Below, in pieces: positions 5,703 through 33,743 of a stretch of 64,000 nucleotides of DNA. The notes beneath the pieces are model-generated. The model was not told where the DNA came from. It was given only the letters and a program-made list of their open reading frames with translations, and searched no databases. The position numbers were made by a program, and so were the translations under genes. Source of the DNA: a virus; IMG/VR virus record IMGVR_UViG_3300020442_002322, positions 1 to 64,000 of that record. One strand, given 5' to 3'. The number at the start of each line of letters is the position of its first letter. The first letter of the stretch is position 1.

Positions 5703-5722
5703 CGTACAGTATAATCAACAAA

Positions 5723-6370: not shown

Positions 6371-6390
6371 GTAATACCTCCCCTGTAAAG

Positions 6391-7506: not shown

Positions 7507-7512
7507 GTTGTT

Positions 7513-7541: not shown

Positions 7542-8640
7542 CCATAAGTGGCTGTATATCTCTTGTTTTTTCATAAAAAATTTGTTTAGCGTCTTTAATA
7601 TCTTTTGCTTTAGGACTACACATACCACATCCGCAATAAAATTTAGGGCATTTTATTACAGGAAAATTTCCTGTATCAAACTGTTTTTGGAATTTAGATA
7701 TAATACTATCAAAATTATCAGCATTACCTATAGGTCCTATTTCTCCATCTAAATTTACTTTACAAGTTTGATGAAAATATACTTGATTGGTTTCACTATT
7801 GATGTATAAGAAGTCCCAATTAACCATACAATGCCAACCATTAAAGTTGTTATTAGAAACATATTTTTGTTTTTTCCATATATCATTATTTTTTACATTC
7901 AAACACTTTCCGTTACAACATGGTCTTCCTATAGTCTGTGATGATGTTTTTTTAGTAGCCATTGCCATAACGCTATTAGGCAAAACACTCCAATCTTTGT
8001 TAAAATATCTTAATTGCTCCGGAGTATATTCATGAGCATGACCTTTCTCAACATCTTGCTTGTTAGAACTATCACCAATTGGTCTAGCAATCGATTTAAT
8101 GCCCAATGTTTTACAAAGTTTCACAACATTTTTACATTCGTCAAAATAGTCTTTATGAAACATTACATTAACAGTCACAGTAAAATTATTATCAACCATT
8201 GTTTGTAAGTTATCTAGTACAAGTTCCTTTTCTTTTATACTTGCTTCTGGATGGTAACTTATTGTTGCACTATGTAAATTTTGAATAATTTTCACACATT
8301 TGTCTTCAGAGTAGCAACCATTAGTTGTAACATTTGTTTTAAGGAAAGGATAGGTTGTTTTACAATATTCAATAAAATCAAAAAATCCAGGATGTACAGT
8401 AGGTTCACCTCCTGTAAAATTTAAATCCACAACTTTATGTTGGCTTCTAAATCTATTTAATAGATAGGTATACTGGACTACTCCATCTAATGTTTTTTTT
8501 AAAGATTCAAAATTTATAATAGGACTAGTTTTATTGCTACGGTGAGGACCACAATAACTACAAGCATATGTGCATCTTCTACCTAAGTCCCATACAACAT
8601 GAAATCTTTCGTTTGCTGTATGATTGATTGCGGATAACAT
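7534..8640 (-). CDS. Radical SAM protein with C-terminal Cys-rich domain
   Basis: CTYACSYC, FTGGEPT, TTNG, C-terminal CPKFYCGCGMC. Confidence 0.88.
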   Translation of the reverse strand: MLSAINHTANERFHVVWDLGRRCTYACSYCGPHRSNKTSPIINFESLKKTLDGVVQYTYLLNRFRSQHKVVDLNFTGGEPTVHPGFFDFIEYCKTTYPFLKTNVTTNGCYSEDKCVKIIQNLHSATISYHPEASIKEKELVLDNLQTMVDNNFTVTVNVMFHKDYFDECKNVVKLCKTLGIKSIARPIGDSSNKQDVEKGHAHEYTPEQLRYFNKDWSVLPNSVMAMATKKTSSQTIGRPCCNGKCLNVKNNDIWKKQKYVSNNNFNGWHCMVNWDFLYINSETNQVYFHQTCKVNLDGEIGPIGNADNFDSIISKFQKQFDTGNFPVIKCPKFYCGCGMCSPKAKDIKDAKQIFYEKTRDIQPLMVD

Positions 8641-9296
8641 TATACAATAATTTTTTCGTATTCCGCTTTTGGATATGATTCTTTGTAATTTTTATTATTA
8701 AAAATTCTATGGTCATCTAATAAAGGATACCCTACGCCAAACATTACGGATAAGTCATCCTTTTCTACGCCCCAGCCTGATGTCCATTCATCTGGAATAA
8801 TATCATGCCATATGCATCCACAAAATCCAGACCTCATACCTTTCATATTTGCGGCAATACCAATTGCACTTGCCGCCAAGCCAATTTCTAAATTTTTATC
8901 TATTCTCCATTGCTTAGGTGTAGGATCAGTTCCTCTTTCTCTATTGCGTCTGCGTTCACTAGTGCGTTCATTTTGATTAACAAAAAATAAAAAAAGTAGA
9001 TTAGCATCAGTTTGGGGATTTTGAAATATACCTTTGTCCATTAAGGCTTTTGTTTCAACACCTACATTTCTAATTGTATCATCAGAATTACGTGCTACAC
9101 TAGCCCATTTACGTACTTCATCTCTGTCTTTTATACAAACAATTTTAAAACTATTTAAATTTTGCTTTGTAGGAACATTGTATCCTGCTTCTAATAAAAA
9201 ATCAATTGTTTCGTTATCTATTACTTTAGAATAATCCCAATTACGTTGACAATGTTGAAAGTTTTCAATGATTCCTAAATATTCTTCATTATTCAT
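8640..9296 (-). CDS. Nitroreductase-fold flavoprotein
   Basis: QHCQRNWD, PTKQN, NPQTDANLL, IGLAASAIGIAANMKGMRSGFCGC, FGVGY. Confidence 0.75.
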   Translation of the reverse strand: MNNEEYLGIIENFQHCQRNWDYSKVIDNETIDFLLEAGYNVPTKQNLNSFKIVCIKDRDEVRKWASVARNSDDTIRNVGVETKALMDKGIFQNPQTDANLLFLFFVNQNERTSERRRNRERGTDPTPKQWRIDKNLEIGLAASAIGIAANMKGMRSGFCGCIWHDIIPDEWTSGWGVEKDDLSVMFGVGYPLLDDHRIFNNKNYKESYPKAEYEKIIV

Positions 9297-9978
9297 TTAT
9301 TAACTCCTCTAGTGTTCCTTCAAATTGAATAAGCAGTCCCATTTTCCAAGGTCCAATAAGTTTTCCTGTACTGTGAATATTATTACTATTAAAAACAACC
9401 ATGTTACCAGGAATAAAATCATATGCTGTTCCTGTTAAGCCATAAAATAATTCAGGAGTATGATTGTTGAATTCAAGATATTCATTGTAAAAATTTTCAT
9501 CAATGGGTTTGTCTAAACAACCATATACCCTTTCATCTTCATACGGAGTCATTGGAATCTTATGATTACGATCAAAGTCTCCATGTTTTTTTATATCTTT
9601 GCGCTTTCCATACCATGTTTGTCCAAATCCATTATCAGTATATTGGTCAAATACAATAAGTTGTTGCTTAGGCTCCTCAACTTCTAAATGGATAGGTATA
9701 GTAACATTCATAAGTTGCCAAGGTTCGTCACTGTCAACATGCAAACTATACAAATTGGTATGTTTGTAAATATTGCCGCCTTGTCCTTTGTTTGTTTTAA
9801 AATATTTGCTTAGAATTGGATTTAAAACTTCATGTAAGTGTGACCACGGACTATTAATTTTGATCACATCTGGATTGTTAGGCTTGTGTACATGTAAATC
9901 AGGATTATTGTCAAAAAATTCTTTTATATACTTGCATACATCTAACGGAATACTATTTTCAAAACAAGTATGTCTCAT
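9289..9978 (-). CDS. Fe(II)/2OG oxygenase-like protein
   Basis: NIYKHT..LHVD...NVTIPI...FDQY...PGNMVVFNSNNIHSTG, closely matching 5040-5690. Confidence 0.6.
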   Translation of the reverse strand: MRHTCFENSIPLDVCKYIKEFFDNNPDLHVHKPNNPDVIKINSPWSHLHEVLNPILSKYFKTNKGQGGNIYKHTNLYSLHVDSDEPWQLMNVTIPIHLEVEEPKQQLIVFDQYTDNGFGQTWYGKRKDIKKHGDFDRNHKIPMTPYEDERVYGCLDKPIDENFYNEYLEFNNHTPELFYGLTGTAYDFIPGNMVVFNSNNIHSTGKLIGPWKMGLLIQFEGTLEELINE

Positions 9979-10596
9979 TTACCACCTATAAGTTACAATA
10001 TTATCTAATGTAGGACGCTTGTGATGATGTTCTATATAAACATCTTTTGTTGTATTTGTTCTTGGATCTAAAAAAGTTTTTGCATCACTTTTATATCCTA
10101 CACCCATCATTAATTCTACAGGATTATCTATTCCTAATTCATTTGCCAAGTCTTGCTTATTCATAATACATTGACAAAATCCTGTAGAAAGTCCTGCGTT
10201 TTCAAACGCCATCATAAGCATCATGCTTACAATTCCCATTTCCATAAAAATAATTCGCTGATCTGTAAATCCCCATACATCATTTGCTTTTGACATATTA
10301 TTTGTATCAACAGTCCTACGACTAAACACAAGCAAATGAGGAGCAAGTGTTTGAGGATTTCCATAATCATCCTCTACAGTTGCATCTTCATCTCTATGAG
10401 TATATTCAAATATTCTATTTCTTAATTGTTGATTTGAATTATCAAATACATCAATTTTATATGGCATTCTTTTTTGTTTGCTAGGAACTTTTGACAAGAC
10501 ATTGTTTATTATATCTACTATTTTTTTATTACTAGGAACTTCTTCTGTCCAAGTAAAATTTGTTTTTCTGTTGTCTAGTAGTGTGTTAAATTCCAT
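9979..10596 (-). CDS. Nitroreductase-fold flavoprotein
   Basis: LDNRKT, VPSKQ, NPQTLAP, EMGIVSM...AGLSTGFCQC, MGVGY. Start moved to ATG 10596 behind a GGAGG SD. Confidence 0.72.
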   Translation of the reverse strand: MEFNTLLDNRKTNFTWTEEVPSNKKIVDIINNVLSKVPSKQKRMPYKIDVFDNSNQQLRNRIFEYTHRDEDATVEDDYGNPQTLAPHLLVFSRRTVDTNNMSKANDVWGFTDQRIIFMEMGIVSMMLMMAFENAGLSTGFCQCIMNKQDLANELGIDNPVELMMGVGYKSDAKTFLDPRTNTTKDVYIEHHHKRPTLDNIVTYRW

Positions 10597-11758
10597 ATCC
10601 ATTCCCCTCCAGATAAGCAACTAGCTCAGGATTATAATCCTTTATTCTAGTGTTGTAAAATCCATCAAGTTTTTTAGTTGTATATAAAAACTCCAACCAA
10701 TGCTTCTCATTGTACTTACCGCTTTTTACAAATGTATTTACAAGTTTTGACGCGGTGGTATTATTGCTATTTTTTTCTAATATCCAATCTACATAAGACT
10801 GTGGTGCGTATAATAAAGATAGATACCTAGGATATCTAACAAAATCTACACTCACATGATATTTGTTTTCTTCAATGAGAAAATTCAAACTATCTGACAG
10901 TTTATTTGCTGTTAGTAAACTTACTGCACAATGAAAACTAACATGTATATTATCTAATATTTTTTCATATGTTTTTGCATTATTATATGTTTGCTTGTAA
11001 TCACTTCCATAGCGTTGATAATCATTTGCTTTATCATAAGCATCTAAACTTACATTTATATAAAGCATTTCATATTTGTTAAGTTTGTCTATTATTTTTT
11101 TGTTGGGTATTGTTGTTCCGTTAGTGGCTATTTCTAATTTAATTTTACTAGGGTCGGCTCTTTTTTCTATGTAATCTAAAAATTTAATAAAGTTAGGTGA
11201 AATAAAAGGCTCCCCTCCTAATAATTTTATGTAAACTAAATTAGATAAATCTACACTATCAAATTTATCAAAACTTGGTTCTAATTTTTTAAAAACATCT
11301 TCTTCTAAAAATTTATCTCTAAGTTGTAGTTTACTACTAAACTTGCTATCACACATTTTACATTGTAGATTACAAATGTTATCTAAACTCATTTCTATAT
11401 ATCTAACACTGTCAAATTCGTTTGTGTAATTATCTTTCAAATAAGATGAAAATCTCCAATTCAAAAATCTTCTCAAACTTGCTCTATCAGTCAGTTCGTT
11501 GTTTTGTTCTTGTACAAAACATTTAGTGCATTCAGGACGCTTTACACCATCTAACATATCTTGGCGTAGATTTTTTAGATAGTCATTGTTCATTTCAGAT
11601 ATACCGTTTGCTTTTAATGCATCTAAATTTACATTTACAGGATCATCTTTTGCTTGATATCTGCAACAAGGCTTTAGGCTTTCATCTGGACGAACACATA
11701 GGTGTATCCATGGTAACATACAAAATGTATCACTGTTTTTGTAATCTTTTTTACTCAT
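10586..11758 (-). CDS. Radical SAM protein with N-terminal Twitch-like domain
   Basis: FCMLPWIHL..RPD...PCC, ECTKC, then CNLQCKMC...SS, GGEPF, TNGT. Confidence 0.88.
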   Translation of the reverse strand: MSKKDYKNSDTFCMLPWIHLCVRPDESLKPCCRYQAKDDPVNVNLDALKANGISEMNNDYLKNLRQDMLDGVKRPECTKCFVQEQNNELTDRASLRRFLNWRFSSYLKDNYTNEFDSVRYIEMSLDNICNLQCKMCDSKFSSKLQLRDKFLEEDVFKKLEPSFDKFDSVDLSNLVYIKLLGGEPFISPNFIKFLDYIEKRADPSKIKLEIATNGTTIPNKKIIDKLNKYEMLYINVSLDAYDKANDYQRYGSDYKQTYNNAKTYEKILDNIHVSFHCAVSLLTANKLSDSLNFLIEENKYHVSVDFVRYPRYLSLLYAPQSYVDWILEKNSNNTTASKLVNTFVKSGKYNEKHWLEFLYTTKKLDGFYNTRIKDYNPELVAYLEGNGYGI

Positions 11759-12495: not shown

Positions 12496-13425
12496 TTACT
12501 TTCTTTCTTCTCTCTCAATTTTGTTTAATCCTTTGTCTGTTCCTCGTTCGTCAAATATTCCTTCTATTAAAAAACGCAAAGGTGTTCGCACACCAAATTG
12601 ATGTTTACCGTTTTTGTCTTTTAACCAACCAACATGTATACTGTCTGTTTCTTCAAGATTAAAATCTGCACACACCTTTGAATATAGATCTCCATAATTT
12701 GCCCACCAATAGTCTGTGCCAAAATGTTTCATTGCTTCTACACCCAACCACATATCACTTACATTAGCATAAGCGAAATCATTCATAATAGCAATAGGCC
12801 CATTTACTCTTTCTTTTGTATATCTTATTCCAATACGCTGACTTCCCATTCCTAGTGCTTTACTTAAACTTACACTAACACTCTGTACAGCAGGATGTGT
12901 AACATCAAATTCAAAATTACGACACTGACCAAACCATGCGCCGTCAATATGCACAGGTATATCTCCCATATGACAGTAATCTAAAAGTTTATCAAACTCA
13001 TTGTGATAATTGGTTGTGATACAACTAGGATAACTTGCTATAAAAACATCGCCCCTTCCTAAATCACTATAGTGTGTGATTTCTTTTACTGTAAAATCAG
13101 TTAAACGTCTATGATACTTGTATTCCCCTTTATAAACAGCTATATTACGACCGTGTAGCTGGTGTAACTCATCTAGTTGATGTGTAGTGCCTAAGATTGC
13201 ATCTCTGCGTGTAAAGGTCTCTAAACCTGCATAGTGTACATGTTTATGCGACATAATCCATTCATCTATTGTTTTTAAAAATGTTTCTGTGTATGCATGA
13301 GGATCTTTAGGATATGTATTCATATCTAGATTTTGTCTAAATTTTGTAAACTTACTTAGGTACATAGGACGCTGTCTGCGTGTACCAAGCATTTCAAATG
13401 TTATATCTTCATACTTCATATTCAT
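12496..13425 (-). CDS. PLP-dependent fold-type-I enzyme (aminotransferase/decarboxylase-like)
   Basis: HIDGAW (PLP-binding Asp) and SLSKALGMGSQRIG (Schiff-base Lys motif SxSKxxxxxxxRxG). Confidence 0.7.
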   Translation of the reverse strand: MNMKYEDITFEMLGTRRQRPMYLSKFTKFRQNLDMNTYPKDPHAYTETFLKTIDEWIMSHKHVHYAGLETFTRRDAILGTTHQLDELHQLHGRNIAVYKGEYKYHRRLTDFTVKEITHYSDLGRGDVFIASYPSCITTNYHNEFDKLLDYCHMGDIPVHIDGAWFGQCRNFEFDVTHPAVQSVSVSLSKALGMGSQRIGIRYTKERVNGPIAIMNDFAYANVSDMWLGVEAMKHFGTDYWWANYGDLYSKVCADFNLEETDSIHVGWLKDKNGKHQFGVRTPLRFLIEGIFDERGTDKGLNKIEREERK

Positions 13426-14635
13426 CTAACCAAGGCCAAAGTTTTTTCCAGTTTGTTCCTCTACGTGCATCAATTTCATTGAGAGTAACTTTTAATTGTT
13501 TAATTTTTTTATTATCCTGTTTTTGATTGTTTACTTTAGACCAAAATCCCTGTAGCCATTTAATTGTAGTAGGATTATTATGGTTTTTAATTGATTGTTC
13601 AAATTGTTTATCAAAAAACCCTGTAGGAAATACACCTACATCCATACCAGGTCTACCACTGGCAAAACTTATACTATGTTTTATAGGTCTAAAGTTGTGC
13701 CATTCTGCAACTTTTGCACATAAATCAGGTAATGTGTCCATAGTCAAACTAATTATAGTTCCATGAATTTCTATTGTAATGCTAGGATATTCATGTAATA
13801 TAGTTTCAAAATTTTCTTCCCATTGTTTTAAATTCAAGCCTGTTCTTATATATTCTTGTTGAGGTCCCCAACAATCAAAACTACACACAAGTTGAAAATC
13901 TTTAATATGTTTGCGTTTTTGTAAATCTACTACTTTGTCTAATAATTTACGCATTCTCTTATTTTCGACTTTAAGATTAGAAAAAATAATAAATCTTGTA
14001 TCAGGACAAGGGTTATTAAAAAAGAAATCAATATTTTGTTCAAACTCAGGCTGAAAAAACGGTTCGCCGCCTAATATTCTATACTCGGCAATATATTTTG
14101 CATGTTCTTCCATCCATTTCCAATGAGCCTTTAACATTTCTGGATATTGTTTTCTACTTCTTTCCATTTCTGCTAATTCGGCCGGATCTCTCAAACCAAA
14201 TTTCTTTTCTTCAGCTTCCCATACTGTACTATATTCGCCGCTACAATATATACAATTTAAATTACATAAATTATTAAAATATACTTCAACCATACGTGGC
14301 GTCAATCTTACTTTTCTAGGATCTTTGTCCATCTCTACAGGTGCAAGATAATCATCTTGTTGTAGATCAGTTCTATCACTCATACCTCCTGCAAGTTCAA
14401 TATCTCTACAGTACTCACACCCGTCTCCAGGCCATTTGCCTGCTTGCATTAATCTTCTATGTTTTATTTTTGTTGGTGTATTATGAAAATCAGAATAATT
14501 AGCTGGACTTATTGTATCAGATTTTACTCTATGACAACTGTTTGTACTACCTTCCATTAATCGTATAGTGCTCCATGTCCATTTGTACAAACACACAGGA
14601 TCTTTTAATCCATATTTTTTTAAAAAGTCACCCAT
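13409..14635 (-). CDS. Radical SAM protein with N-terminal Twitch-like domain
   Basis: CLYKW...SCHR, GCEYC, then CNLNCIYC, LGGEPF. Confidence 0.88.
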   Translation of the reverse strand: MGDFLKKYGLKDPVCLYKWTWSTIRLMEGSTNSCHRVKSDTISPANYSDFHNTPTKIKHRRLMQAGKWPGDGCEYCRDIELAGGMSDRTDLQQDDYLAPVEMDKDPRKVRLTPRMVEVYFNNLCNLNCIYCSGEYSTVWEAEEKKFGLRDPAELAEMERSRKQYPEMLKAHWKWMEEHAKYIAEYRILGGEPFFQPEFEQNIDFFFNNPCPDTRFIIFSNLKVENKRMRKLLDKVVDLQKRKHIKDFQLVCSFDCWGPQQEYIRTGLNLKQWEENFETILHEYPSITIEIHGTIISLTMDTLPDLCAKVAEWHNFRPIKHSISFASGRPGMDVGVFPTGFFDKQFEQSIKNHNNPTTIKWLQGFWSKVNNQKQDNKKIKQLKVTLNEIDARRGTNWKKLWPWLDEYEV

Positions 14636-15327: not shown

Positions 15328-16223
15328 GCTACACTCCACTTTTCAACAACTGCATCTAGTTTACAAGGACATGCTTCGTAATTACACAGAATAGGATCAT
15401 CAGGCAGTGTGTACCCTGTAAACAAATTACCAATACTGCCGCCAACATTTTTTGTACAACGTTTCATATTTCCATTTGGTTCAATCATTAATCTTTTTAT
15501 ACCTGCTGTACACATATAACCTTTAAACTTGTGCAGTCCTTGATCAAGAACTGTCATAAATTTTTTCTTTTCTCCGTTAAAATGTAAATTTCGTGGTATT
15601 TCCCAATCAATACCAAAAGGTTTCATTTTACTGTAATAACTGTTTTGTATCCATTCTCGCTGTTCATCTGTATATTCAAAGTAACTGTGGCCATGAATAC
15701 TAGTTCTAGTAAATTTAGGAGTAATTTCTACATTAAGATCTTTAAGGCGTTCGTACAACTTAACTGCACGATCATAGTTGTCTGGAACGACCATTAGTGG
15801 AATACTTACACTTGCCTTGTGTTGCATAATCTTTGCTACTTCATAAAAATGATCGTCATTCATTTCTTCATAATGCCAACTTAAAAATACAAAAGCTCTG
15901 TGTGTTCTAAATTGTTCCCAATAACGCAAAGTTCTGCTTGCATTGGTACTAAACTCTACAAACACTCTATCATCACTTATTGTATCAACAAAATCTTGAA
16001 ACTGCGGCCATACAGTTGGTTCGCCGCCTAGCACTTCGATGTATAGATATTTGTTACGTTGTTTTAATTTTTCGATTAATTTTAGATATGGTGTCCAATC
16101 TTTAGGCCAGCGACTTGTTCCGTCTCTATGATAATCACTGCAATAACTACAATTAAAATTGCAAACATTGTGTACAAACATTGTTACTATGCAACAATCT
16201 AAATTTTCACTTGTTATGTGCAT
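15324..16223 (-). CDS. Radical SAM protein with C-terminal SPASM/Twitch-like domain
   Basis: CNFNCSYC, LGGEPT, STNAS, CTAG...RC...CNYEACPC. Start likely ATG 16223. Confidence 0.86.
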   Translation of the reverse strand: MHITSENLDCCIVTMFVHNVCNFNCSYCSDYHRDGTSRWPKDWTPYLKLIEKLKQRNKYLYIEVLGGEPTVWPQFQDFVDTISDDRVFVEFSTNASRTLRYWEQFRTHRAFVFLSWHYEEMNDDHFYEVAKIMQHKASVSIPLMVVPDNYDRAVKLYERLKDLNVEITPKFTRTSIHGHSYFEYTDEQREWIQNSYYSKMKPFGIDWEIPRNLHFNGEKKKFMTVLDQGLHKFKGYMCTAGIKRLMIEPNGNMKRCTKNVGGSIGNLFTGYTLPDDPILCNYEACPCKLDAVVEKWSVA

Positions 16224-17565
16224 CAAATAAATCCTTGTATTGCGGAACAATATCTAAAATATTTTGATTACGTACTTCGTCAAGTTTTTTAGTTTGATCT
16301 ACAAAATGTTCTAACCATTCTTCAGAATAGTCTTCACTCATCATAAATTTCTCTACGCCGCCTAGCACTTTAAGCCAGTTATTTTTTACTTTGTCAGAAA
16401 AATCCGTAGTTTGTATCCAATCGTTATACTCTGCATAATGCTCAGAAACTTTTTGTTTTAACTCTGGTGGTAGAACTTTAATATTAAAATATTTAGGACT
16501 ATGACACATGTGATGTGTAAGTATAGGCCTCATGCCGTCAATAGGATTAAATTTTGTAAGTCCGCTTTCAGTAAGTTTCCATTTCATAAATTCTGCCATA
16601 TGAAAAACATTGTAAGGTGTAACTGTAAAAGCAAACCATGCTTTTAAATTTATCTTATCATTGTTTTGCAGTGTCATCATGTTTTTATATACTGCATCAA
16701 ACTTAGCAGGTGTTCTTTGATAATTAAACACATCTCCAATTCCGTCAATACTTACACCTATACGAATTTGTTTGAACTGTTCCCATAAATGTACTAACCT
16801 GTCAGGAACCATTGTAAGATTACTGTTGTATTCAAGTTGAATCTTTTTACTTTTACCACTTGCTACTAAACGTTCTAAACTTTCTTGATGCTCTTCAATT
16901 ATAAGAGGTTCGCCTCCTACAATATATAATTTTTTTGCATTAGGAGCATACTGTTCAAAGTTTGACCAATATCTATTGTTATTTTGAAACCAATCATATT
17001 GATCTGTGAACCATCTACCTTTTTTATTTTTTTGTAATTTAATACGTTCGTGTGTATCTTTGTATTCTGTCTTGCCTGTAACTTTAACAAAGTCATCATA
17101 CCATTGATGGCTATCAGTAGGTCCGCACATACGACATTTTAAATTACAAAAATTTCCATAACGTATATCAATAAATTCTACTGGTAATTTTTTAGCATCA
17201 ATAGTTCCATCTTCTTTTGTGTGCGGCAATACTTTTTCTAAACTAATATCACCAAACCATTTGCCCCAGTCATCATTTTCATATTCGCGTCTACTACGGA
17301 TGCCATTTTTTTCCTCTTGTCTACAACGTTCACATTCTGGATGCCATTCACCTTTCATCATAGATTGCCGAACTTCTTTTAATATTTCTGCGTTACGTGC
17401 TTCGTCCCAATCATCTTTACCTGCATTATAAGGAGTACCATCTTTTTTCTTCATGATACCACGTTGAGGACTGTAGCTATTGGTATTACAACAAATACGC
17501 AAATCACCGTTATTACGCATATTAATACTGTTCCACGGAAGTGGGCAAAATGTACAATTACTCAT
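16207..17565 (-). CDS. Radical SAM protein with N-terminal Twitch-like domain
   Basis: FCPLPW...NGDLRICC, ECERC, CNLKCRMCGPTDS, GGEPL. Confidence 0.9.
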   Translation of the reverse strand: MSNCTFCPLPWNSINMRNNGDLRICCNTNSYSPQRGIMKKKDGTPYNAGKDDWDEARNAEILKEVRQSMMKGEWHPECERCRQEEKNGIRSRREYENDDWGKWFGDISLEKVLPHTKEDGTIDAKKLPVEFIDIRYGNFCNLKCRMCGPTDSHQWYDDFVKVTGKTEYKDTHERIKLQKNKKGRWFTDQYDWFQNNNRYWSNFEQYAPNAKKLYIVGGEPLIIEEHQESLERLVASGKSKKIQLEYNSNLTMVPDRLVHLWEQFKQIRIGVSIDGIGDVFNYQRTPAKFDAVYKNMMTLQNNDKINLKAWFAFTVTPYNVFHMAEFMKWKLTESGLTKFNPIDGMRPILTHHMCHSPKYFNIKVLPPELKQKVSEHYAEYNDWIQTTDFSDKVKNNWLKVLGGVEKFMMSEDYSEEWLEHFVDQTKKLDEVRNQNILDIVPQYKDLFDAHNK

Positions 17566-18971
17566 TATACGTCCTTAAAAATATCTTTCATTTCTGGAAA
17601 TGTTTTTGCAAAACTAATTCCGCGTTGTTGATCACAGCGTTCTAAAAATTCTTTAGTTTCTGGCAAACGTACACTCCAATCTTCTGATTCCATAAACTGT
17701 AGCATACCTTCTAGTCTGCTAATTCCATAACTTGCTTCACGCCATTTGTCATATGTTACTTTTCCTTTGTGCCAACTAGGAACACCTTTTTCCCAATTAG
17801 CTTCCCACCAAGGATAAAATTCTTCATACTTACGACGGCATTCGTCTTTAAACCACTTAGGCAATACTTTTACATTTAGGTGAGGTGGGTGATAAACAAA
17901 ATGATAATTTATACCTCCTGCACCAAACGGCCACATATTAATTTTATTAAATCCTTCGTTTAGTTTCCATTTAATAAAATCTGGAATATAATAAATGTTT
18001 AGTGCTTGTACTGCACAAGCAACTGTAACTTCTACATTGTTACCTGTTTGCTTGTCAAGTATATGAAATACTTCTCTTGTGCGATCCCATTTGCTAGGAT
18101 AGCGTATATAATCGTTCATGCTTTCAATGCTGTCAACGCTGTAATGAAAACGTACCAATTTAAAGTGCTTCCAGAGCTCGAATAAATCTTCTCTCCATTC
18201 AACACCATTGCTGTTGTAACGCAATTCAAGATCTTTTGCATATCCTTGACGAATACATTCTTCAAGTATTTCATAATGTTCCTCAATAATTAAACTTTCA
18301 CCGCCTGCAAAATAAATCTGTTGCATGTTTGGAATTTGTTCATAGAACTGTTTCCAAAAAATTGGATTTTGTTTGTGCCAATTATAGCTACTGCCGTTGT
18401 AACTACCTTTGTCTTTCCATTGCATAGTTTCTTTAAGACTTGCGTTTTCAACTGCTGGAAATACTGCTTTCCAATCTTTGATCCAGCCTGAACTGTCATG
18501 TGGGCTACACATTACACAGGCAAGTTGACATTTAGTACCAAAGCGTAAATCAATGTAAGTTAGCTCAGGTGGCACACTGCCATCTTTATCTGTGTTTGCA
18601 ACAAGCCTGTCTACATCAACACGTTGACTCCAGTAGTTTGTTTCCCACATACGTTTACTGTTATGTCCAGCGGCTTCTTCTTTGTAACATTTTAAACAAC
18701 TAGGCGGCATTTCTCCGTTAAGCATTTGCTTACGGACATTTTTCATGTATGTACTATTCCAACTTGTTAAAAAATCACTTACATTTAGATTGTTAGGTTT
18801 GCCGTCTTCTGTTTTAAGGATACCTACTTGTCCGCCATGTTCTTTATCATTTGTTTTGCCAACCGAACTTGCATTAGCAGTACAGCATACTCGCATACTT
18901 CCGTCTGGTCTTGTGCTAAGGTGTACCCATGGAAGGATACAAAATGTGTCTGAGGGTGCTTTGTAATTCAT
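17565..18971 (-). CDS. Radical SAM protein with N-terminal Twitch-like domain
   Basis: FCILPWVHL..RPDGSMRVCC, SCLKC, CQLACVMCSPHDSS, AGGE. Evident paralog of 16207-17565. Confidence 0.9.
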   Translation of the reverse strand: MNYKAPSDTFCILPWVHLSTRPDGSMRVCCTANASSVGKTNDKEHGGQVGILKTEDGKPNNLNVSDFLTSWNSTYMKNVRKQMLNGEMPPSCLKCYKEEAAGHNSKRMWETNYWSQRVDVDRLVANTDKDGSVPPELTYIDLRFGTKCQLACVMCSPHDSSGWIKDWKAVFPAVENASLKETMQWKDKGSYNGSSYNWHKQNPIFWKQFYEQIPNMQQIYFAGGESLIIEEHYEILEECIRQGYAKDLELRYNSNGVEWREDLFELWKHFKLVRFHYSVDSIESMNDYIRYPSKWDRTREVFHILDKQTGNNVEVTVACAVQALNIYYIPDFIKWKLNEGFNKINMWPFGAGGINYHFVYHPPHLNVKVLPKWFKDECRRKYEEFYPWWEANWEKGVPSWHKGKVTYDKWREASYGISRLEGMLQFMESEDWSVRLPETKEFLERCDQQRGISFAKTFPEMKDIFKDV

Positions 18972-18994: not shown

Positions 18995-20062
18995 CTATTT
19001 AAATTGCTCCGTAAATGGATCCCATTCAACGCCACACTTTTGAGCGCAAACTTTTAATTTACCATCTGCACAACTAGACTTATTCCAGCTAGTTTCTATG
19101 CGGTTGAATATACCTGTTTCAAAAACTTTCCATAATCCATTGCGTGTATCTAAAGATTTTTTATCTCCAATAAAATCCCATATTTGTTCTTTTGTTGGAT
19201 CTTCTAACCACCATTTGTACATGCGTCCGGCAGTCCAACAGCAAGGCATAGCAAGCCCTTCTGCTGTAATATATAAACTATTATCTTTTTTAACTTTACA
19301 ATCGACAGGCACTGCATCATAATAGTTGTCCATACTACCATATTTCTCTAAGAGTTTTTCTTGCTTGGTAAGTGCTTTGTTTTGGTATTTTGCTTCTGGT
19401 TTTTTGAGCTCTGTTGTATCTTTGCCTTTGCGATTTTTGGCTTGATGAGTTTCTTTTTTATTGGTTTTAGCATCTACAAATCTTCCTGTTTTCTTTGCTA
19501 CAAATTTTTCAAAGCCCCATTCTTTTGACAGTGCTTCTGCTTCATCTACTTGATGTTGGTTATGTTCAAATATTAAAAAGTCCCATCTAGCTCTGCCGCC
19601 TGCTTTTGTAAAAGCTCGCATACTGCGTTCTACATTGTTCCAAACAACACCTTGCCTGTACAAATGATTAGTATCGCTAAGACCATCCACACTAAAAATA
19701 ACTGCACCCATTCTACCAAAGACTTGAGCTAATTCAGTCCACCACACTTCGTCTCTTGCTCCTGCATTTGTATTCATGCTTAGCCAAATGTTTGTATTAT
19801 GCTCTCTAAAATAACGGAAAATTTCTAGTGTATCACGTGCTACTATCGGGTCACCATGATTGCCGCACATATACATTGTTTTTAATTGAGAAATAAATTC
19901 AGGACTAAAAATTTTTTTACAATCTTCTAATGTAAGTTCATCTAAATTGAGGTGTGGATTTAATCCTTCTCCATTCATGTTGCGATCACACATAGGACAA
20001 GAGGCTTGACAATTTTGTGTTACCTCTAAGTGTATTGTTTTTATATCTTCGTATCTATACAT
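18995..20062 (-). CDS. Radical SAM protein with C-terminal SPASM/Twitch-like domain
   Basis: CQASCPMC, CGNHGDP, TNAG, FSVDG, C-terminal DC...PCCW...CAQKC. Confidence 0.88.
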   Translation of the reverse strand: MYRYEDIKTIHLEVTQNCQASCPMCDRNMNGEGLNPHLNLDELTLEDCKKIFSPEFISQLKTMYMCGNHGDPIVARDTLEIFRYFREHNTNIWLSMNTNAGARDEVWWTELAQVFGRMGAVIFSVDGLSDTNHLYRQGVVWNNVERSMRAFTKAGGRARWDFLIFEHNQHQVDEAEALSKEWGFEKFVAKKTGRFVDAKTNKKETHQAKNRKGKDTTELKKPEAKYQNKALTKQEKLLEKYGSMDNYYDAVPVDCKVKKDNSLYITAEGLAMPCCWTAGRMYKWWLEDPTKEQIWDFIGDKKSLDTRNGLWKVFETGIFNRIETSWNKSSCADGKLKVCAQKCGVEWDPFTEQFK

Positions 20063-20279
20063 CGTAAACTAATTTTATTTCTTTTCCTGGACCTACACGA
20101 CTTGGTAAATCTCCGTATTGTTCTACATACCATTTAATTACAGCCTTGTACCAGTTTTCACTATTGTGATGTGCTTGCTTGTTAAACTGGTATATGTTGT
20201 TATTTGTTGCTTGCATTGTGCTTAGTGCCCTAGCACTTTCTTTTTGCAGTTCACGTCTTGTTAAATTACTTATATCCAA
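20055..20279 (-). CDS. Small hypothetical protein (74 aa)
   Basis: Fills the gap between two genes with overlapping start/stop codons. GGAGG lies upstream of the ATG. Confidence 0.7.
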   Translation of the reverse strand: MDISNLTRRELQKESARALSTMQATNNNIYQFNKQAHHNSENWYKAVIKWYVEQYGDLPSRVGPGKEIKLVYDV

Positions 20280-23200
20280 TTTTCATAAACCTCCTGTACG
20301 TTACTAAATCTAACGTACCTTCAAATAGTGTTTGTGTCATCGGTGTTGATTTACTAAACATTTCAATATCTTTTGAACAGTTTACATGTTCTTCAACATC
20401 AATATAATCATTGCTTTGTAATATTACTAATTTACCTGCAGGTATTTTTCTATACCATTCGTCAAAGTTTACTATGTGTTCACAACTTGTGTTTACGATT
20501 GTATCTGGACTGTCACTTAAACTTGTTTCTACACCTTCGCTTTTTTGTACGGTATAATAATGTGTATTATAATCAATATCAAATATATCTTGCGTAGATG
20601 CTTTAAACTTCCAGCCGTCTAGTGCAAGATCACGATTAAACATTTCTGCAATATTAGCAACACCAGGATCAATATCAAAACTACGAATTTTGTTAAATTT
20701 AATATCTGCTTCTTGTATCATAGGAACAAGTGTAGCATACCAACCTGCACATAAAAATACAGTGCCTAAATCTACATCAAGACTTTTTAAATTATCTATA
20801 AGCCATTTTTTACTTTTAAGTTGTCCACGACTCAAACAGTCTAGATCAAATTCTATATTATTATTGACTAGATATTTCAAAGGTTTTACAAACTTACTTT
20901 GTGTATGTTTGTCAAGAACGCTCCACAACACATCTTTATTGTTTTCCATAGCAAGAATAATTTCATTTTTTACTTCAGGCTCAATTCTTTTCAATGCCCA
21001 GACATTTTTATCAAATGCAAGTTTTTTAAGATCTGTTGCTGTATCATGTTCTTCTAACAATCTAAACAGACTGTATGGATTTTCATCAACTAGTATTTTT
21101 CGTAAATCTTCGTTGCCTTGAATATATTTAAAAATACTAGTTGGGTTTTTTGTAAGAACTGCTTTTCGTAGTTCGTCATAGTCTTCGCCTAACACTCTAA
21201 ACAAACTATACAAATTTTTATCAAAAATTGCTTTGCGAAGTTCTTCTTGCTCAGGAATAAGATTAAAAACTTCTGCCATGTTTTCTTGTATTACTGCTTG
21301 ACGTAGTGTTTCATGTTCTTCACCTAACAGTCTAAACAAACTATGTATATTCTTTTCGAGAAAAACTTTACGTTCATCTTCTAGTTCTATACCTTTATCT
21401 TCTAGATATCTAAACAAACTATGATAGTTTTTTTCTTCTACAAACTTACGTAGATCTTCGTTACCTAATATACGTAACACATCAAGTAAATGACCATCAT
21501 TGTAAAATCTTCTTAAGTTAGTTACTTTGTCACCGTATAATATTTCAAATCTATCAAGTAAATCTACTATAAAACTATCACGTGGTGCAAGTTGTAGTGT
21601 GTTTTGTTTAGACTGTACCTTAATCGGTACACTTTCTTGCGGTACATTTTCCGCTTTTGGAGCACTTTCTTGCACATCAATATCTGGATAGTCCTCATGG
21701 AAACGTTTTCTTAACCATGCAAAGTCATTTATTAGCCCCAGATTGTCCCTGCTAGAAAGGCCAAACTCCATACCAGCGGTAGCACCTGCCACAGCGTATT
21801 CCCCAAAAGGTCTATCGTGTCCCACGGTTGTCCAAGTTTTGAGTCTTTCATTAGTTTCGTCCTCCTTTTGTCTATCAATTACTTTACTGCTTAATTTTGC
21901 ACATTCTCTAAATCCACTTTTCCAAGTTTCAAAAGGCCCTGTGTTGAATCTTGTTACTACACTTATCTGATCCATTTTCTTAAATTTAGTGCTAAGGCTA
22001 GTTGTCATATCCTTTGTTGTGGTGTCCATGTCTCTTGCCATTTGTGTAGGAAATAATTTAATACCACCATAACCGTAAACAAGATCATTTACAGGATTTT
22101 CACTGCGCCATACATGCACTGTATCTGTTTGTGTAGTTACATAATCAAAATTAAAGTCGTCTTTTAGTTCTGCATCGCCATCTATAATCCAAAACATTTC
22201 TGTTTCACAAATGTTTGCCGCGGCAACGTGTGCATTGTGTATACCTTTTACTCCGTGTATACGTTTTGCACGAGGATAGCGTTTTAACAAACGTTGATAG
22301 TTTTCATCTGCGTTTGGTTCCGCATAACTGATCATGACTATATCATATTCATTAGATTTGTTTTCAGGTTCTGGAACGTATTCTGCTGTAACATATGGAT
22401 GCTCTGGACGTGGCGGGTTTCTATATGTTAGTTTATAGAATTTGCTTTGTTCACTTGTAAAAGGATGTGCAGGAATATCTACATCTAATTCGTAGCGTAG
22501 TTTTTCTCCTTGTGCAATTATTTCGTATGGTAGTTGTGCGTCAGGAACTTTGCTATACGTGTCTTTCCACAAACTATTTAGGTACTCAAAGTCACGTACA
22601 TTTACATAGTTCCAATCTGTACACATTGTTTTGTACAAACCTTCTCTAGCACCAAAAATTGCCCACTTGCCGTTTTCTACATCTGTGCCTACTGTACACC
22701 AAACATATAAACGTTCTAAATTTTTAGCATGTACACTTCTCACATCTTGTGGTTTGATACCTTCTATCAAGGACATCTTTACGCCTTCTCTAAATCCTGC
22801 TCGCCATGCTTGTTGTGGTGTAGCATTGTTATGTACTGTACTCATTAGACTATTGATTTGTATGTACTCAAGGTCCCAACAAAAGTCAATACCAGCCGCA
22901 ATATTATCAGGATCAGCATTTTCATGTGTTTTCATACGTAGAACTGTTTCTCTATCCCAGCATTTGATACCGCCATTGCCATAACGTAGCCCGTTGATGA
23001 TATTATCAGCTGTCCAACTGATTACATGTCTGGACAAATCTACGCCTGGTTTAAAATTAACTGCTTGATTAAGAAATTGTTCATCAATTTGATTATCACC
23101 GTCAATTGTTATAAATCTTTTTGTGTCAGATATCTCTGCACAAGCCTTGTGTGCGGCATCTGATCCTTCTACACCATGTATGCGTTTTGCCCAAGGCACT

Positions 23201-23292
23201 TTTGTAAGAAGATTAGCATAATTTTCTTCCGCATTAGGTTCATCATATGAAAGATAGATTATATCGTAGTCAATAACTTTAAACTGTGCCAT
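20266..23292 (-). CDS. Multidomain protein: two tandem GT-A-like domains + helical repeats + C-terminal class I SAM methyltransferase-like domain
   Basis: Duplicated domain (DIIYLSYDEPNAEENY..AKRIHGV..AH.AC...IDGD..NGLRYGNGGIK / DIVMISYAEPNADENY..AKRIHGV..AH.AA...IDGD..NDLVYGYGGIK). C-terminal LCAGWY, SFDID, INTSCEH. Confidence 0.65.
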   Translation of the reverse strand: MAQFKVIDYDIIYLSYDEPNAEENYANLLTKVPWAKRIHGVEGSDAAHKACAEISDTKRFITIDGDNQIDEQFLNQAVNFKPGVDLSRHVISWTADNIINGLRYGNGGIKCWDRETVLRMKTHENADPDNIAAGIDFCWDLEYIQINSLMSTVHNNATPQQAWRAGFREGVKMSLIEGIKPQDVRSVHAKNLERLYVWCTVGTDVENGKWAIFGAREGLYKTMCTDWNYVNVRDFEYLNSLWKDTYSKVPDAQLPYEIIAQGEKLRYELDVDIPAHPFTSEQSKFYKLTYRNPPRPEHPYVTAEYVPEPENKSNEYDIVMISYAEPNADENYQRLLKRYPRAKRIHGVKGIHNAHVAAANICETEMFWIIDGDAELKDDFNFDYVTTQTDTVHVWRSENPVNDLVYGYGGIKLFPTQMARDMDTTTKDMTTSLSTKFKKMDQISVVTRFNTGPFETWKSGFRECAKLSSKVIDRQKEDETNERLKTWTTVGHDRPFGEYAVAGATAGMEFGLSSRDNLGLINDFAWLRKRFHEDYPDIDVQESAPKAENVPQESVPIKVQSKQNTLQLAPRDSFIVDLLDRFEILYGDKVTNLRRFYNDGHLLDVLRILGNEDLRKFVEEKNYHSLFRYLEDKGIELEDERKVFLEKNIHSLFRLLGEEHETLRQAVIQENMAEVFNLIPEQEELRKAIFDKNLYSLFRVLGEDYDELRKAVLTKNPTSIFKYIQGNEDLRKILVDENPYSLFRLLEEHDTATDLKKLAFDKNVWALKRIEPEVKNEIILAMENNKDVLWSVLDKHTQSKFVKPLKYLVNNNIEFDLDCLSRGQLKSKKWLIDNLKSLDVDLGTVFLCAGWYATLVPMIQEADIKFNKIRSFDIDPGVANIAEMFNRDLALDGWKFKASTQDIFDIDYNTHYYTVQKSEGVETSLSDSPDTIVNTSCEHIVNFDEWYRKIPAGKLVILQSNDYIDVEEHVNCSKDIEMFSKSTPMTQTLFEGTLDLVTYRRFMKIGYK
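20950..21530 (-). repeat. About 8-9 degenerate 22-26-aa helical protein repeats (consensus approximately EDLRKAVxEKNxxSLFRxL)
   Basis: NEDLRKFVEEKNYHSLFRYL / EDERKVFLEKNIHSLFRLL / ETLRQAVIQENMAEVFNLI / EELRKAIFDKNLYSLFRVL / DELRKAVLTKNPTSIFKYI / EDLRKILVDENPYSLFRLL / TDLKKLAFDKNVWALKRI. Boundaries approximate. Confidence 0.85.
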
Positions 23293-23797
23293 GTACTAGT
23301 CCGTAAGAATCAAACACCATAGGTGTGTATATACTTACATCTCCCTTTTCTTCTTCGTCAATGAACTGAACTGTATGTCCATTTGTAATTTGTTCTACTG
23401 TTGCTTCAAATGTTCTAATCAACATATGTAAATCTCTTTTGTGTGTTACACTGAACCTACAAAGCCTATTAGGCTCCAGCAAAATATCTGTATTTCCCAT
23501 TGTAACTTGCCAACTGCTGTTGTTTTTAGTAATCAAACAGTCTGCACTATCTATTGTAGGTACATGATGTATGATATCCTTGATATCATACGACACTTTA
23601 GGTTGCACATATGGTAATAATTTGTATTTCTTTTGTGCTACACTGTATTTTACAACATGTCTGTCTCTTAATGACTTATCTTCTGCAAACTTTACGTATA
23701 GGTCTTCATCAACCTCACAAAAATTGTCATCCTTGGGCGGCATATTTGTAAGTCCATTGATACGCCCAGTGTCTTTGTCAAATTTTACGTAATACAT
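23279..23797 (-). CDS. Hypothetical protein
   Basis: 172-aa ORF overlapping both neighbours in the operon. Confidence 0.7.
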   Translation of the reverse strand: MYYVKFDKDTGRINGLTNMPPKDDNFCEVDEDLYVKFAEDKSLRDRHVVKYSVAQKKYKLLPYVQPKVSYDIKDIIHHVPTIDSADCLITKNNSSWQVTMGNTDILLEPNRLCRFSVTHKRDLHMLIRTFEATVEQITNGHTVQFIDEEEKGDVSIYTPMVFDSYGLVHGTV

Positions 23798-24591
23798 TCT
23801 TTGTACCTTTTCAACATTACATCACAAAAGTCTTTTTCTGTATAATGGAATACACCTTCTTGCTTGTAGTTGCCTATTTTCAAATCATTGTTCATATACC
23901 AATCAACTTTGTGTTGCCAACTTTCACCTACAGTATCCCAATTTTGTGCATGTAACTTCATATGTACAAAATTTACAAGATCTTTTGCTCTATCTTCATG
24001 TAATTGTAGCATGTCACACACAATAGCCGCACATACATCGATACTTACATGTTGCGGTTTGTGGTCTTTACAGTAAATGCTGTAAAATTCTTGCCACTCT
24101 TCTATAACAACTTCAAGTATAGCAAAAAATTGTTGTGCAGTTCTACATTTTTTGAAGTAATACATACCTACATACACATCTGGTAATAAATTCATTTCAA
24201 ATGTCTTTCTATAATATCCACTTGACACTGGTTCACCTCTGTATGTTACAGGATTTTGTGTAAAGTAGATATCATAATCTGCAAAAAGATACCAATCTAT
24301 TTTGTCTAACACTAATACGTCACTGTCTAGTACAATAGTTTCGTCATAAGGCGACAGTTCAAATGCTTTATATCTATTTTCAATTTTCCAATCACTGTCT
24401 TTTGCCTTGTCATCTGCCATTACAATTACCCTATCAAACACAAGATAGTATTCTTGTGGTACAGGATTATCAGTTACTAGTGTAAAATTTTTATTTCCAC
24501 TGTATGTTCCACTTAATGCACACAAATATGCCTGTTTGACATAATCATCTTTTTCATTGTTTTGTGCAAAAATTAAAAAACCTTTACTCAT
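23785..24591 (-). CDS. Glycosyltransferase (GT-A fold, GT8-like)
   Basis: KGFLIFAQN..DYVKQA, ENRYKAFELSPYDETIVLDSD (DxD), FVHMK. Confidence 0.72.
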   Translation of the reverse strand: MSKGFLIFAQNNEKDDYVKQAYLCALSGTYSGNKNFTLVTDNPVPQEYYLVFDRVIVMADDKAKDSDWKIENRYKAFELSPYDETIVLDSDVLVLDKIDWYLFADYDIYFTQNPVTYRGEPVSSGYYRKTFEMNLLPDVYVGMYYFKKCRTAQQFFAILEVVIEEWQEFYSIYCKDHKPQHVSIDVCAAIVCDMLQLHEDRAKDLVNFVHMKLHAQNWDTVGESWQHKVDWYMNNDLKIGNYKQEGVFHYTEKDFCDVMLKRYKECIT

Positions 24592-25388
24592 AATAACTCC
24601 TCCAATGAAAATTTGTTCATAGCATGTATTGTCATGTCTTTTGTTTTTATAGGTGTAAATTTATTATTGCCATCATCTACCAAGAATGTTAATCTTCTGT
24701 TTGTCATTTTAAGTAAAATGTCTTTGTCTAGTGTGTAAAACAATTTGCCTGGCATAGGATGTACAAAGTCTCCTTTTGTATGTCCATTCATAATATGTGC
24801 CGCAATACTAAACGCAAAATCATTCCTAAATGTAGACTGTGTAATTTGATAGGTCATGCGATAGTGTTTCCAGTTTTCAGCAATATGTTTTACTAGATCA
24901 AAAAATATTTTGTTGACTACTGTTTTTCTAAAAAATACACAAGTAGCCCAATAAAAGTCTACTCCTGTTTCACTAATCTTATCAAACTCTTTGTAGTTTC
25001 TTGTTTGTGCAAGATCATAAGCATCTCTATACATACACAAATCATTAGGCTGGTCAAAGCAGTTGTGCAGTTGGCTATCGCAAACAATTACATCACTGTC
25101 AACTACTAATGTTTCATCATACGGTGAAAGATCAAAACTTTCAGCTCTTGCTGTATTTTTAAAACTTAGAGATTCAGAACCATGTCCGTTGTTATAAATT
25201 TTTGCTGTGTAGTCTTTTACATCTACTTTTATTACTCTGTCAAATAACGTGGTTCTGACATCTATATCTGTAACTATACTTGTAGGAAGATTACAAAATC
25301 TTTCCATACGCATTGCAAGATTTTTTGCCTGTTTTACATAGTCTATAGATTCGTTATTAAAAGCAAAGACTAATACGCCTTTAGTCAT
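24588..25388 (-). CDS. Glycosyltransferase (GT-A fold), paralog of 23785-24591
   Basis: KGVLVFAFN..DYVKQA, FDLSPYDETLVVDSD (DxD), FRNDFAFSIA, HAMNK. Confidence 0.72.
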   Translation of the reverse strand: MTKGVLVFAFNNESIDYVKQAKNLAMRMERFCNLPTSIVTDIDVRTTLFDRVIKVDVKDYTAKIYNNGHGSESLSFKNTARAESFDLSPYDETLVVDSDVIVCDSQLHNCFDQPNDLCMYRDAYDLAQTRNYKEFDKISETGVDFYWATCVFFRKTVVNKIFFDLVKHIAENWKHYRMTYQITQSTFRNDFAFSIAAHIMNGHTKGDFVHPMPGKLFYTLDKDILLKMTNRRLTFLVDDGNNKFTPIKTKDMTIHAMNKFSLEELL

Positions 25389-29232: not shown

Positions 29233-29239
29233 TATTTAT
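29233..29239 (-). promoter_or_regulatory. Putative late promoter ATAAATA
   Basis: GATAAATA in the 31-nt gap upstream of 29209. Confidence 0.5.
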
Positions 29240-33736: not shown

Positions 33737-33743
33737 TATTTAT
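33737..33743 (-). promoter_or_regulatory. Putative late promoter ATAAATA
   Basis: AATAAATACAGT, also seen at 52167. Confidence 0.55.

Follow-up and report, generated by a model that had tools for sequence, protein, structure and literature searches.

What reactions might a phage carry out with one long protein made of two copies of the same domain, a string of short repeats and a third domain of another type? The question is raised by a gene at 20266..23292, on the minus strand of a 64,000-nucleotide stretch of viral DNA (positions 1 to 64,000 of IMG/VR virus record IMGVR_UViG_3300020442_002322; hereafter, the window). An earlier note on this DNA had proposed a fusion of two glycosyltransferase (GT) domains, a helical repeat spacer and a methyltransferase. 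We find that the gene product represents one of the fused forms taken by a conserved module of three genes (N1, N2 and repeat-C) in uncultured marine T4-like giant phages. Its most economical reading, to which we give about an even chance, would be a soluble enzyme, made late, that builds a glycan and caps it with a methyl group.

Domain layout of the encoded protein

The region 20266..23292 is a single open reading frame (ORF; P0001) of 1008 amino acids (aa), with the order N1, linker, N2, linker, repeat array and C domain, all on the minus strand. The N1 domain (residues 1-300; 22393..23292), probably a divergent GT-A domain of GT2-like type, contains IDGDN (23092-23106), YGNGGIK (22963-22983) and FREGVK (22777-22794). 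A Pro/Glu-rich linker, recognised by its sequence (residues 290-315; 22348..22425), leads to its paralogue N2 (residues 313-532; 21697..22356), where the corresponding segments are IDGDA (22171-22185), YGYGGIK (22057-22077) and FRECAK (21895-21912). The second linker, rich in Pro, Glu, Gln and Val and likewise defined by its composition, comprises 41 residues (533-573; 21574..21696) and is followed, just before the repeats, by the conserved head motif FIVDLLDRFEILY (residues 574-586; 21535..21573). With a profile made from the units of this protein itself, eight repeats of 22-28 aa are detected (residues 589-775; 20968..21528), each of which we read as helix, Asn turn, helix and Gly/Asp turn. 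The C domain, of ~200 aa (residues 806-1008; 20269..20877), is probably class-I-methyltransferase-like, with VFLCAGWYATL at the motif I position (20728-20760), IRSFDID (20668-20688) and NTSCEH (20476-20493).

Every particular that the earlier note had drawn from the visible sequence was correct: the ORF, the two homologous domains with DGD, the Pro/Glu/Gln linker, the tandem repeats and the C-terminal domain. It had counted 8-9 repeats of 22-26 aa; the eight stand, with units of up to 28 aa, and the ninth, from residue 776 onward, is degenerate and not counted by the profile. The window protein has no membrane segment (highest Kyte-Doolittle 19-residue mean, 1.35), and a Pfam scan found no kinase domain in it. 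Contigs identical to the gene at 20266-23292 occur in marine metagenomes of separate studies (2014, 2020). A relative with ~96% identity is present in a metatranscriptome library, presence in an RNA library not being proof of transcription.

A duplicated domain of probable glycosyltransferase type

N1 (residues 1-300) and N2 (taken here as residues 313-560) align over 244 columns with 32% identity (E=4e-37). This likeness is far beyond chance and, judged by it, the two domains are paralogous. Both carry I-D-G-D (residues 63-67 in N1 and 370-374 in N2), and likewise Y-G-x-G-G-I-K and F-R-E. In 40 relatives with a single domain of either type, the Glu of SY-x-EPNA, an A-H pair, the second Asp of the DxD motif, Y-G, R-E and a Trp are invariant, while the first Asp of DxD is kept in at least 90%. 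Since these residues are retained in the N1 and N2 lineages alike, both copies look functional.

Because the window protein has no family match of its own (Pfam at E<=1, PHROGs and NCBIfam, GT and methyltransferase families included), its folds were assigned through transitive and profile-profile evidence. In the N2 region, PF00535 or PF13641 was matched by five of eight full-length homologues (E<=0.1), and DUF6492 by three of the eight. One homologue, P0063, which shares 49% identity with the window protein, scores above the Pfam cut-off for GT2 (28.5 bits against 23.3 bits), and four of the 40 single-domain relatives matched PF00535. We then compared 104 non-redundant N-type domains, using hhalign, with a GT2 profile built from the 10 PF00535 matches in E. 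coli K-12 (E=2.4e-4, probability 44%, 66 columns). The alignment sets IDGD on the GT2 DxD, and G-V-x-G...A-H on the GT2 segment N-x-G...a. Controls gave E=0.34 for the reversed GT2 profile, E=0.047 for the methyltransferase profile and E=0.013 for the reversed methyltransferase profile; an earlier, smaller N-type profile had reached E=0.0015 against GT2, with a probability of 16%. The N-terminal domains are probably divergent GT-A/GT2-like domains, so that the glycosyltransferase reading of the earlier note gains backing from profile evidence that is weak but specific.

Five relatives of 700-2100 aa (P0256, P0259, P0298, P0354 and P0370) show a further elaboration of the N2-type domain: before a single complete copy, its first ~100 residues, to past the DxD, are repeated in tandem up to six times in degenerate form.

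A class-I-methyltransferase-like C domain

For the C domain, the reference profile was made from the best 24 of 30 places found by PF13649 (Methyltransf_25) in E. coli K-12. A profile of 39 non-redundant C domains aligned with it over 99 columns, from motif I through strand 5 (E=5.3e-4, probability 31%), and the cross and reversed controls gave E values of 0.37-0.7. Only this trimmed, non-redundant profile was significant; the first C-domain profile was not (E=0.076). In the ESM Atlas, the 10 best named look-alike clusters all belong to the class I methyltransferase clan, and one viral cluster scores 0.94. Methyltransf_31 was matched by one of 55 C-domain relatives (E=3e-4), and the Pelagibacter phage homologue of the domain is annotated as a putative methyltransferase. 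The motif I position reads L-C-A-G-W-Y-A, with G-W-Y invariant in the 55 sequences and a single Gly kept. Further on, the post-I Asp, which closes strand 2, is matched by F-D-I-D, whose two Asp residues are invariant; strands 4 and 5 come next in order. A class-I-methyltransferase-like fold is probable on this evidence, and profile-profile comparison and language-model features both speak for the methyltransferase-like C-terminal domain proposed at the outset.

One module, fused or split

Relatives of the protein are numerous. Among 5568 candidates, 228 are long relatives, and 1871 of 2071 candidates are shorter proteins with the C domain; at E<=0.001, a 50%-identity library contains 2604 representative clusters of the family. 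The N1-N2-repeats-C architecture is present in 119 of the 120 long proteins listed, and the 120 short proteins listed consist of a ~20-residue head, 0-11 repeats and the C domain. The head motif FIVDLLDRFEILY of the window protein is the N-terminus of the separate repeat-C protein in split forms. A set of 151 diverse proteins includes N2 alone (29), N1 alone (22), repeat-C (20), N1-N2 (11), N2-C (8), N1-C (1) and a repeat-free N1-N2-C form (1), and many members of the set have several N2-type pieces.

We analysed the best 80 of 560 confirmed places in IMG/VR. The gene order N1, N2, repeat-C is constant in all 80 loci, and the module undergoes both fusion and fission: 24 loci are fully fused, 10 encode N1N2 and C as two proteins, eight encode N1, N2 and C separately and in 23 a radical S-adenosylmethionine (SAM) gene separates N1 from N2. 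Another 15 loci, which complete the set, are either partial or have a doubled N2 or C. Because the parts are either adjacent genes in a constant order or fused in several combinations, we consider them functionally linked. Where the contig reaches far enough, the module is preceded by a 492-aa tail-fibre-like gene, genes for 303/313-aa proteins, a 112-aa gene and two DxD genes. A next gene after the module is visible in 70 loci, and in 53 of these it is similar to the first radical SAM gene of the window. One relative of 681 aa, P0349, joins an N2-type domain and a Radical_SAM domain in a single chain (33 bits for the latter, where the cut-off is 29.5).

A collection of 50,697 isolate records yielded only two matches, both distant. 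Ralstonia jumbo phage RsoM2USA has consecutive radical SAM, N-like (233 aa) and C-like (227 aa) genes, and in Pelagibacter phage Mosig the C-like 'putative methyltransferase' gene lies amid aminotransferase, carbamoyltransferase, nitroreductase and epimerase genes. Literature searches, which did not reach supplementary files, found no description of a GT-GT-repeat-methyltransferase protein family.

A repeat array that varies by whole units

The consensus of 298 in-register units from relatives (94 distinct 22-mers and 119 distinct 23-mers) is E-D-L-R-K-A-V-V-E-K-N-L-H-S-I/L-F-R-L-L-(G/N)-(D/A)-(D/E)-(H/Y). Conservation reaches 96-100% for Asn11, 95-100% for Phe16 and 98% for Arg4. The repeats are read as helical because Pro and Gly are confined to unit positions 20-21 and all family matches are to all-alpha families; the matches themselves (DUF4197, BBS2_CtH, FRB, a terminase RNaseH-like domain and others) were rejected as low-complexity helical matches. 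Each unit may form a helix, an Asn turn, a second helix and a Gly turn, that is, a short two-helix solenoid unit. There may be some resemblance to LRV or HEAT-like repeats; no Pfam match to these appeared. The profile of the 22-23-residue units has no heptad pattern, so at sequence level the array is not a coiled coil, and its many conserved polar residues suggest that it is more than an inert spacer.

Whether the protein is fused or split, the repeats always adjoin the C domain on its N-terminal side, and their number varies from 1 to 15 in 119 fused proteins and from 0 to 11 in 120 split ones. Protein length tracks the repeat count (r=0.97, with 23-26 aa per unit). Copy number is unequal in 485 of the 1152 protein pairs whose first 540 residues share at least 90% identity. 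For example, two proteins of 854 and 876 aa are 97.3% identical and differ by one 22-aa gap, and two of 876 and 935 aa, 92.6% identical, are set apart by gaps of 44 aa in the array and 15 aa in the linker. The comparison of repeat number across homologues for which the earlier note had called yields, in short, whole-unit insertions and deletions between near-identical proteins. Such variation fits a tunable or length-setting spacer, and it fits neutral repeat instability equally well.

Relatives with long arrays contain a 69-bp tandem repeat at the DNA level (10.4 copies with 72% matches) and a 207-bp higher-order period (L015, 8227-8945; L010, 8207-8740). No tandem repeat of this kind was found in the DNA of the window's gene, and therefore the window's array appears old and diverged. 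A repeat-number variant suggested by an RNA-library joint that skips 212 nt inside the repeats was too weak to retain (depth 2.3, side 21).

Neighbouring genes and probable late expression

The record to which the window belongs is 88.8 kb long and 19% complete by CheckV. Its T4-type genes within the window encode a gp55 late sigma factor, a gp46/47-like nuclease, a gp5-like hub and a gp6-like wedge, and the isolates that the wedge protein matches best (~34% identity) are jumbo phages with genomes of about 340-470 kb. The same strand carries, upstream of the ORF, a giant VrlC-like gene (4938 aa) and tail-fibre-like genes with Collar and Peptidase_G2 domains and PHROG tail matches. They are accompanied by two paralogous proteins of 303 and 313 aa, a 112-aa protein, two paralogous DxD proteins of ~267 aa and a 172-aa protein, none of which matches any family. 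The two ~267-aa proteins, with D-S-D (23785-24591 and 24588-25388, minus strand), precede the module in most related loci. A GT8 label for them was unsupported, with no Pfam, NCBIfam or PHROG match and an empty PDB search with one of the two; a fibre-protein name was likewise not given to the 303/313-aa proteins, which had no Pfam, PHROG, NCBIfam or PDB match.

Downstream lie genes for a PP-loop ATPase and for a nitroreductase, and six ORFs that match Radical_SAM (PF04055), four of them above the curated cut-off. Four of the six radical SAM proteins are paralogous (10586-11758, 13409-14635, 16207-17565 and 17565-18971, minus strand) and fall into NCBIfam NF033640, defined by an N-terminal twitch domain, with 227-423 bits against a cut-off of 170. 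The first radical SAM ORF after the module (18995-20062, minus strand) has its best NCBIfam matches among peptide and cofactor maturases, far below their cut-offs. Between the 1008-aa ORF and this gene lies a conserved 53-aa ORF (20055..20216, minus strand), whose stop overlaps the ATG of the radical SAM gene and which is kept in 57 of the 80 loci. It appears to be a real gene, because its synonymous codon differences relative to the window copy exceed the non-synonymous ones (523 against 312), and its product could be a partner or a substrate of the radical SAM enzyme. A Pfam scan of 20 neighbouring ORFs, a set to which the ten ORFs at 2602-9978 do not belong, found no ABC (ATP-binding cassette) exporter, flippase or initiating transferase.

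The word ATAAATA, which we take to be the core or consensus of T4-type late promoters, occurs four times in the window against 40.8 expected, always on the gene strand and 20-23 nt before a start codon. The four copies (6391-6397, 29233-29239, 33737-33743 and 52167-52173, minus strand) precede starts at 6370, 29209, 33715 and 52143, and the word TATAAATA is absent from the window (0 against 11.35 expected). In 75 distinct related loci, 85 of 139 gene-strand motifs lie no more than 45 nt from a start, of which 53 belong to fibre-like genes, 16 to radical SAM genes and 16 to others; in these loci, the motif never precedes the N1, N2, C, DxD, 112-aa or 172-aa genes. The pattern suggests that ATAAATA is a late-promoter word under strong counter-selection, whose four copies each mark a late transcription unit. 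The copy at 29233..29239, 23 nt before the 492-aa tail-fibre-like gene, is the nearest upstream of the ORF on its strand, and no other lies between 29233 and 6397. No minus-strand terminator-like site was found between the ORF and the next gene. The ORF would belong to a late unit that runs from before the 492-aa fibre-like gene through the radical SAM genes and would be co-transcribed with them.

This setting also suggests a protein- or peptide-modifying system, either akin to the ribosomally synthesised and post-translationally modified peptides (RiPPs) or serving virion protein maturation. The GT-like domains would glycosylate and the C domain methylate a substrate held by the repeats, and the battery of radical SAM enzymes would modify it further; the neighbouring 303/313-aa proteins and the downstream 53-aa product are the proposed substrates. 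The overlap of the 53-aa ORF with the first radical SAM gene and the leaning of that enzyme towards peptide and cofactor maturases speak for it, as do the N2-radical SAM fusion, the 23 loci with a radical SAM gene inside the module and the constant position of the module after fibre-like genes, with which it shares a late-promoter-like motif. The GT2 family does include peptide glycosyltransferases whose substrate-binding domains are helical, such as SunS. However, no RiPP recognition element or known precursor family was matched, and the 53-aa product is conserved over its whole length, unlike most leader-core peptides. A freely changing repeat number would also be odd for a specific binding domain, and the C-like gene of Pelagibacter phage Mosig sits amid sugar-type enzymes (aminotransferase, carbamoyltransferase, epimerase). 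We consider such a system quite unlikely.

A comparable region has been described in pelagimyophages, whose hypervariable host recognition cluster carries glycosyltransferases and radical SAM cassettes after VrlC, with modification of the O-chain as the favoured role (PMC7029224); structural variants of this cluster occur in natural populations (PMC12379486). The window shares with it a block after the giant VrlC gene with tail-fibre genes, glycosyltransferase-like genes and radical SAM cassettes (PMC7029224). The accessible text of both papers, on the other hand, holds no account of the GT-GT-repeat-methyltransferase family, its fusion states or its repeat variation (PMC7029224, PMC12379486). 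As has been proposed for the glycosyltransferases of that cluster, the window's enzymes might alter the lipopolysaccharide or capsule of the host during infection and so block superinfection. The shared layout and the preference for the O-chain in PMC7029224 point this way, whereas the position of the gene in a late-promoter-type unit with fibre genes, rather than among early genes, points away from it. So do the lack of a membrane segment in the protein and that of a flippase, exporter or initiating transferase in the ORFs scanned, and the protein family itself is not covered in the accessible part of PMC7029224. Remodelling of the host surface is, in our view, very improbable.

Bacterial and viral precedents

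By analogy, the nearest architectural precedents of the window protein would be the bacterial proteins that combine a polymerase, a coiled coil and a terminator, O7 ORF6 of Klebsiella pneumoniae in particular. In this protein, a single chain runs from a methyltransferase-kinase through a coiled coil to two GT2 modules (PMC11231755). O7 ORF6 and WbbB (serotype O12), as described in the same source, would resemble the phage protein in uniting, within one polypeptide, two GT2-type modules and a helical spacer with a terminating methyltransferase-type module at its far end, and in related systems the modules are variably split among proteins, as in the phages (PMC11231755). They differ from it in that the terminator is N-terminal, whereas that of the phage protein is C-terminal, and in that the spacer is an extended coiled coil in place of 22-23-aa two-helix repeats with Asn and Gly turns (PMC11231755). 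O7 ORF6 also has a kinase and forms a methyl-phosphate cap, whereas no kinase is seen in the phage protein, and the bacterial proteins are membrane-associated and linked to ABC export, whereas the phage protein is viral and predicted to be soluble, with no exporter seen among the 20 neighbouring ORFs (PMC11231755). No sequence similarity between O7 ORF6 or WbbB and the phage protein was detected.

The split phage forms, in which an N1N2 protein accompanies a repeat-C protein, resemble the two-protein layout of WbdA and WbdD in E. coli O9a. The modules of WbdA are GT4 (GT-B), not GT-A. PDB sequence searches, which included WbdD, gave no match to the phage protein or profile. In the O9a system, the terminator bears a methyltransferase, and a helical spacer lies between it and the site where a dual-GT polymerase is recruited (PMC3482155, PMC11231755). 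WbdD departs from the phage protein in that it joins a kinase to its methyltransferase, forms a trimeric coiled coil and binds the membrane through a helix (PMC11231755).

Of these precedents, WbbB and WbdA/WbdD underlie the spacer-ruler analogy of the earlier note, according to which N1 and N2 would alternate on a two-linkage glycan, the array would be a rod that sets its length, methylation would end growth and each added repeat would lengthen the product. The architecture mirrors, in reverse order, that of O7 ORF6 and WbbB, where the spacer is an established ruler (PMC11231755). Whole-unit variation between near-identical proteins is the one real support that the phage family itself offers, along with the linear relation between protein length and repeat number and the fixed position of the repeats next to the C domain. 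On the other side, the repeats are not a heptad coiled coil like those of WbdD and WbbB, since each unit is broken by the invariant Asn11 and by a Gly turn at position 20, and the 41-residue Pro/Glu/Gln linker between the GT pair and the array argues against rigidity. Repeat-free forms exist (N1-N2-C, N2-C, N1-C), and the single-GT fusions among them (N2-C and N1-C) would suit stepwise tailoring better than alternating polymerisation. Nor does the protein have a kinase or a membrane anchor, or its surveyed neighbourhood an exporter. The analogy holds insofar as the parts are linked and the repeat number changes by units, and it falters on the absence of a coiled coil, the flexible linker and the repeat-free forms. 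We regard a polymerase-ruler-terminator as unlikely. Rather improbable, too, is the more particular proposal that the array is a tunable solenoid ruler, in which each recombined unit would shift the methyl-cap length of a glycan polymerised on the phage's own fibre proteins.

Among viruses, the nearest functional precedent would be A064R of chlorovirus PBCV-1. A PDB search at E<=10 found no likeness to A064R, a comparison that covers at most its domain 1, which we take to be present in the PDB, and not the full A064R sequence. A064R adds two rhamnoses in turn and then O-methylates the terminal one, on the virus's own capsid glycan (PMC9614988). Like the phage protein, it is viral and would share the order GT, GT, class I methyltransferase in one chain (PMC9614988). 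It differs in being 638 aa long, without a repeat spacer, in that its own two GT domains are unrelated to each other whereas N1 and N2 are paralogous, and in that it is expressed early, by a eukaryotic virus (PMC9614988). Polymerisation and two single additions, as by A064R, are indistinguishable from sequence.

Proposed function and the points that weigh against it

We infer the folds, the chemistry and the order of steps of the window protein as follows. The ORF, downstream of a late-promoter-like motif, would probably be expressed late, together with the tail-fibre-like genes. Its two paralogous, long-diverged GT-A domains (GT2-like, with DxD) would each add a sugar from a nucleotide sugar to a growing glycan, and the divergent class I SAM-methyltransferase-like domain would then methylate the product. 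The array of 22-23-residue two-helix repeats may keep the methyltransferase apart from the pair of transferases, at a distance that is genetically adjustable. Candidate acceptors are a virion fibre protein, the neighbouring small peptide and a glycan of the host envelope.

Several results count against a glycan-building and methyl-capping enzyme, beginning with the missing family matches of the window protein. PDB sequence searches with the protein and three profiles yielded nothing meaningful, and profiles of either domain were empty at E<=10; rows for ADP-glucokinase and adenosine deaminase were chance matches, in the repeats or in residues 229-298. The Pfam GT2, GT8 and Methyltransf_31 models had no match in the window's own 88.8-kb record at E<=10 (searched in six frames with the GT2 model), and the N-type profile had none on the E. 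coli K-12 chromosome. When the first N-type profile was aligned by hhalign to 20 single proteins of the E. coli colanic-acid region, WcaA and WcaE were not favoured and the best was Wzc (E=0.03). Both hhalign probabilities, 44% for the N-type domains and 31% for the C domain, are below 50%. In the C domain, C-A-G-W-Y replaces the glycine-rich SAM loop, E/D-x-G-x-G-x-G. No acceptor and no nucleotide-sugar pathway was identified, the ten ORFs at 2602-9978 being outside the scan. The case for late co-transcription, too, depends on an assumed promoter consensus and on the absence of other signals.

Part of this evidence could mean that the domains have been misread, the N-type ones being nucleotide-dependent DxD transferases of another kind and the C domain a Rossmann domain that binds SAM or has no catalytic role. 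All family evidence for the window's own sequence is below threshold, its SAM loop is non-canonical and the ESM Atlas look-alikes include nicotianamine-synthase-like clusters. Enzymes of that type use SAM for another kind of transfer. Against a misreading, the profile matches are reciprocally specific, with clean cross and reversed controls; DxD falls on DxD, and motif I, post-I, strand 4 and strand 5 follow in the right order. A close homologue, P0063, is above the Pfam GT2 cut-off. We hold a misreading to be very unlikely, and a late, soluble enzyme that builds and methylates a glycan is the reading we prefer.

Significance for marine phages

The GT-GT-repeat-methyltransferase family is large and entirely uncharacterised, and abundant marine phages carry the module in their host-recognition region. 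Should it build methylated glycans on virions or hosts, it would have a bearing on host range, superinfection and the arms race between marine viruses and their hosts. The natural series of proteins that differ in repeat number alone provides a ready-made test of whether a helical array other than a coiled coil can set glycan length. Should this be so, the ruler principle, established so far for bacterial O-antigens, would extend to viruses. A tunable solenoid ruler, if real, would give viruses their first polymerase-ruler-terminator and would be the first ruler of this type built from something other than a coiled coil, and near-identical phages would display sugar chains of different lengths on their host-recognition apparatus.

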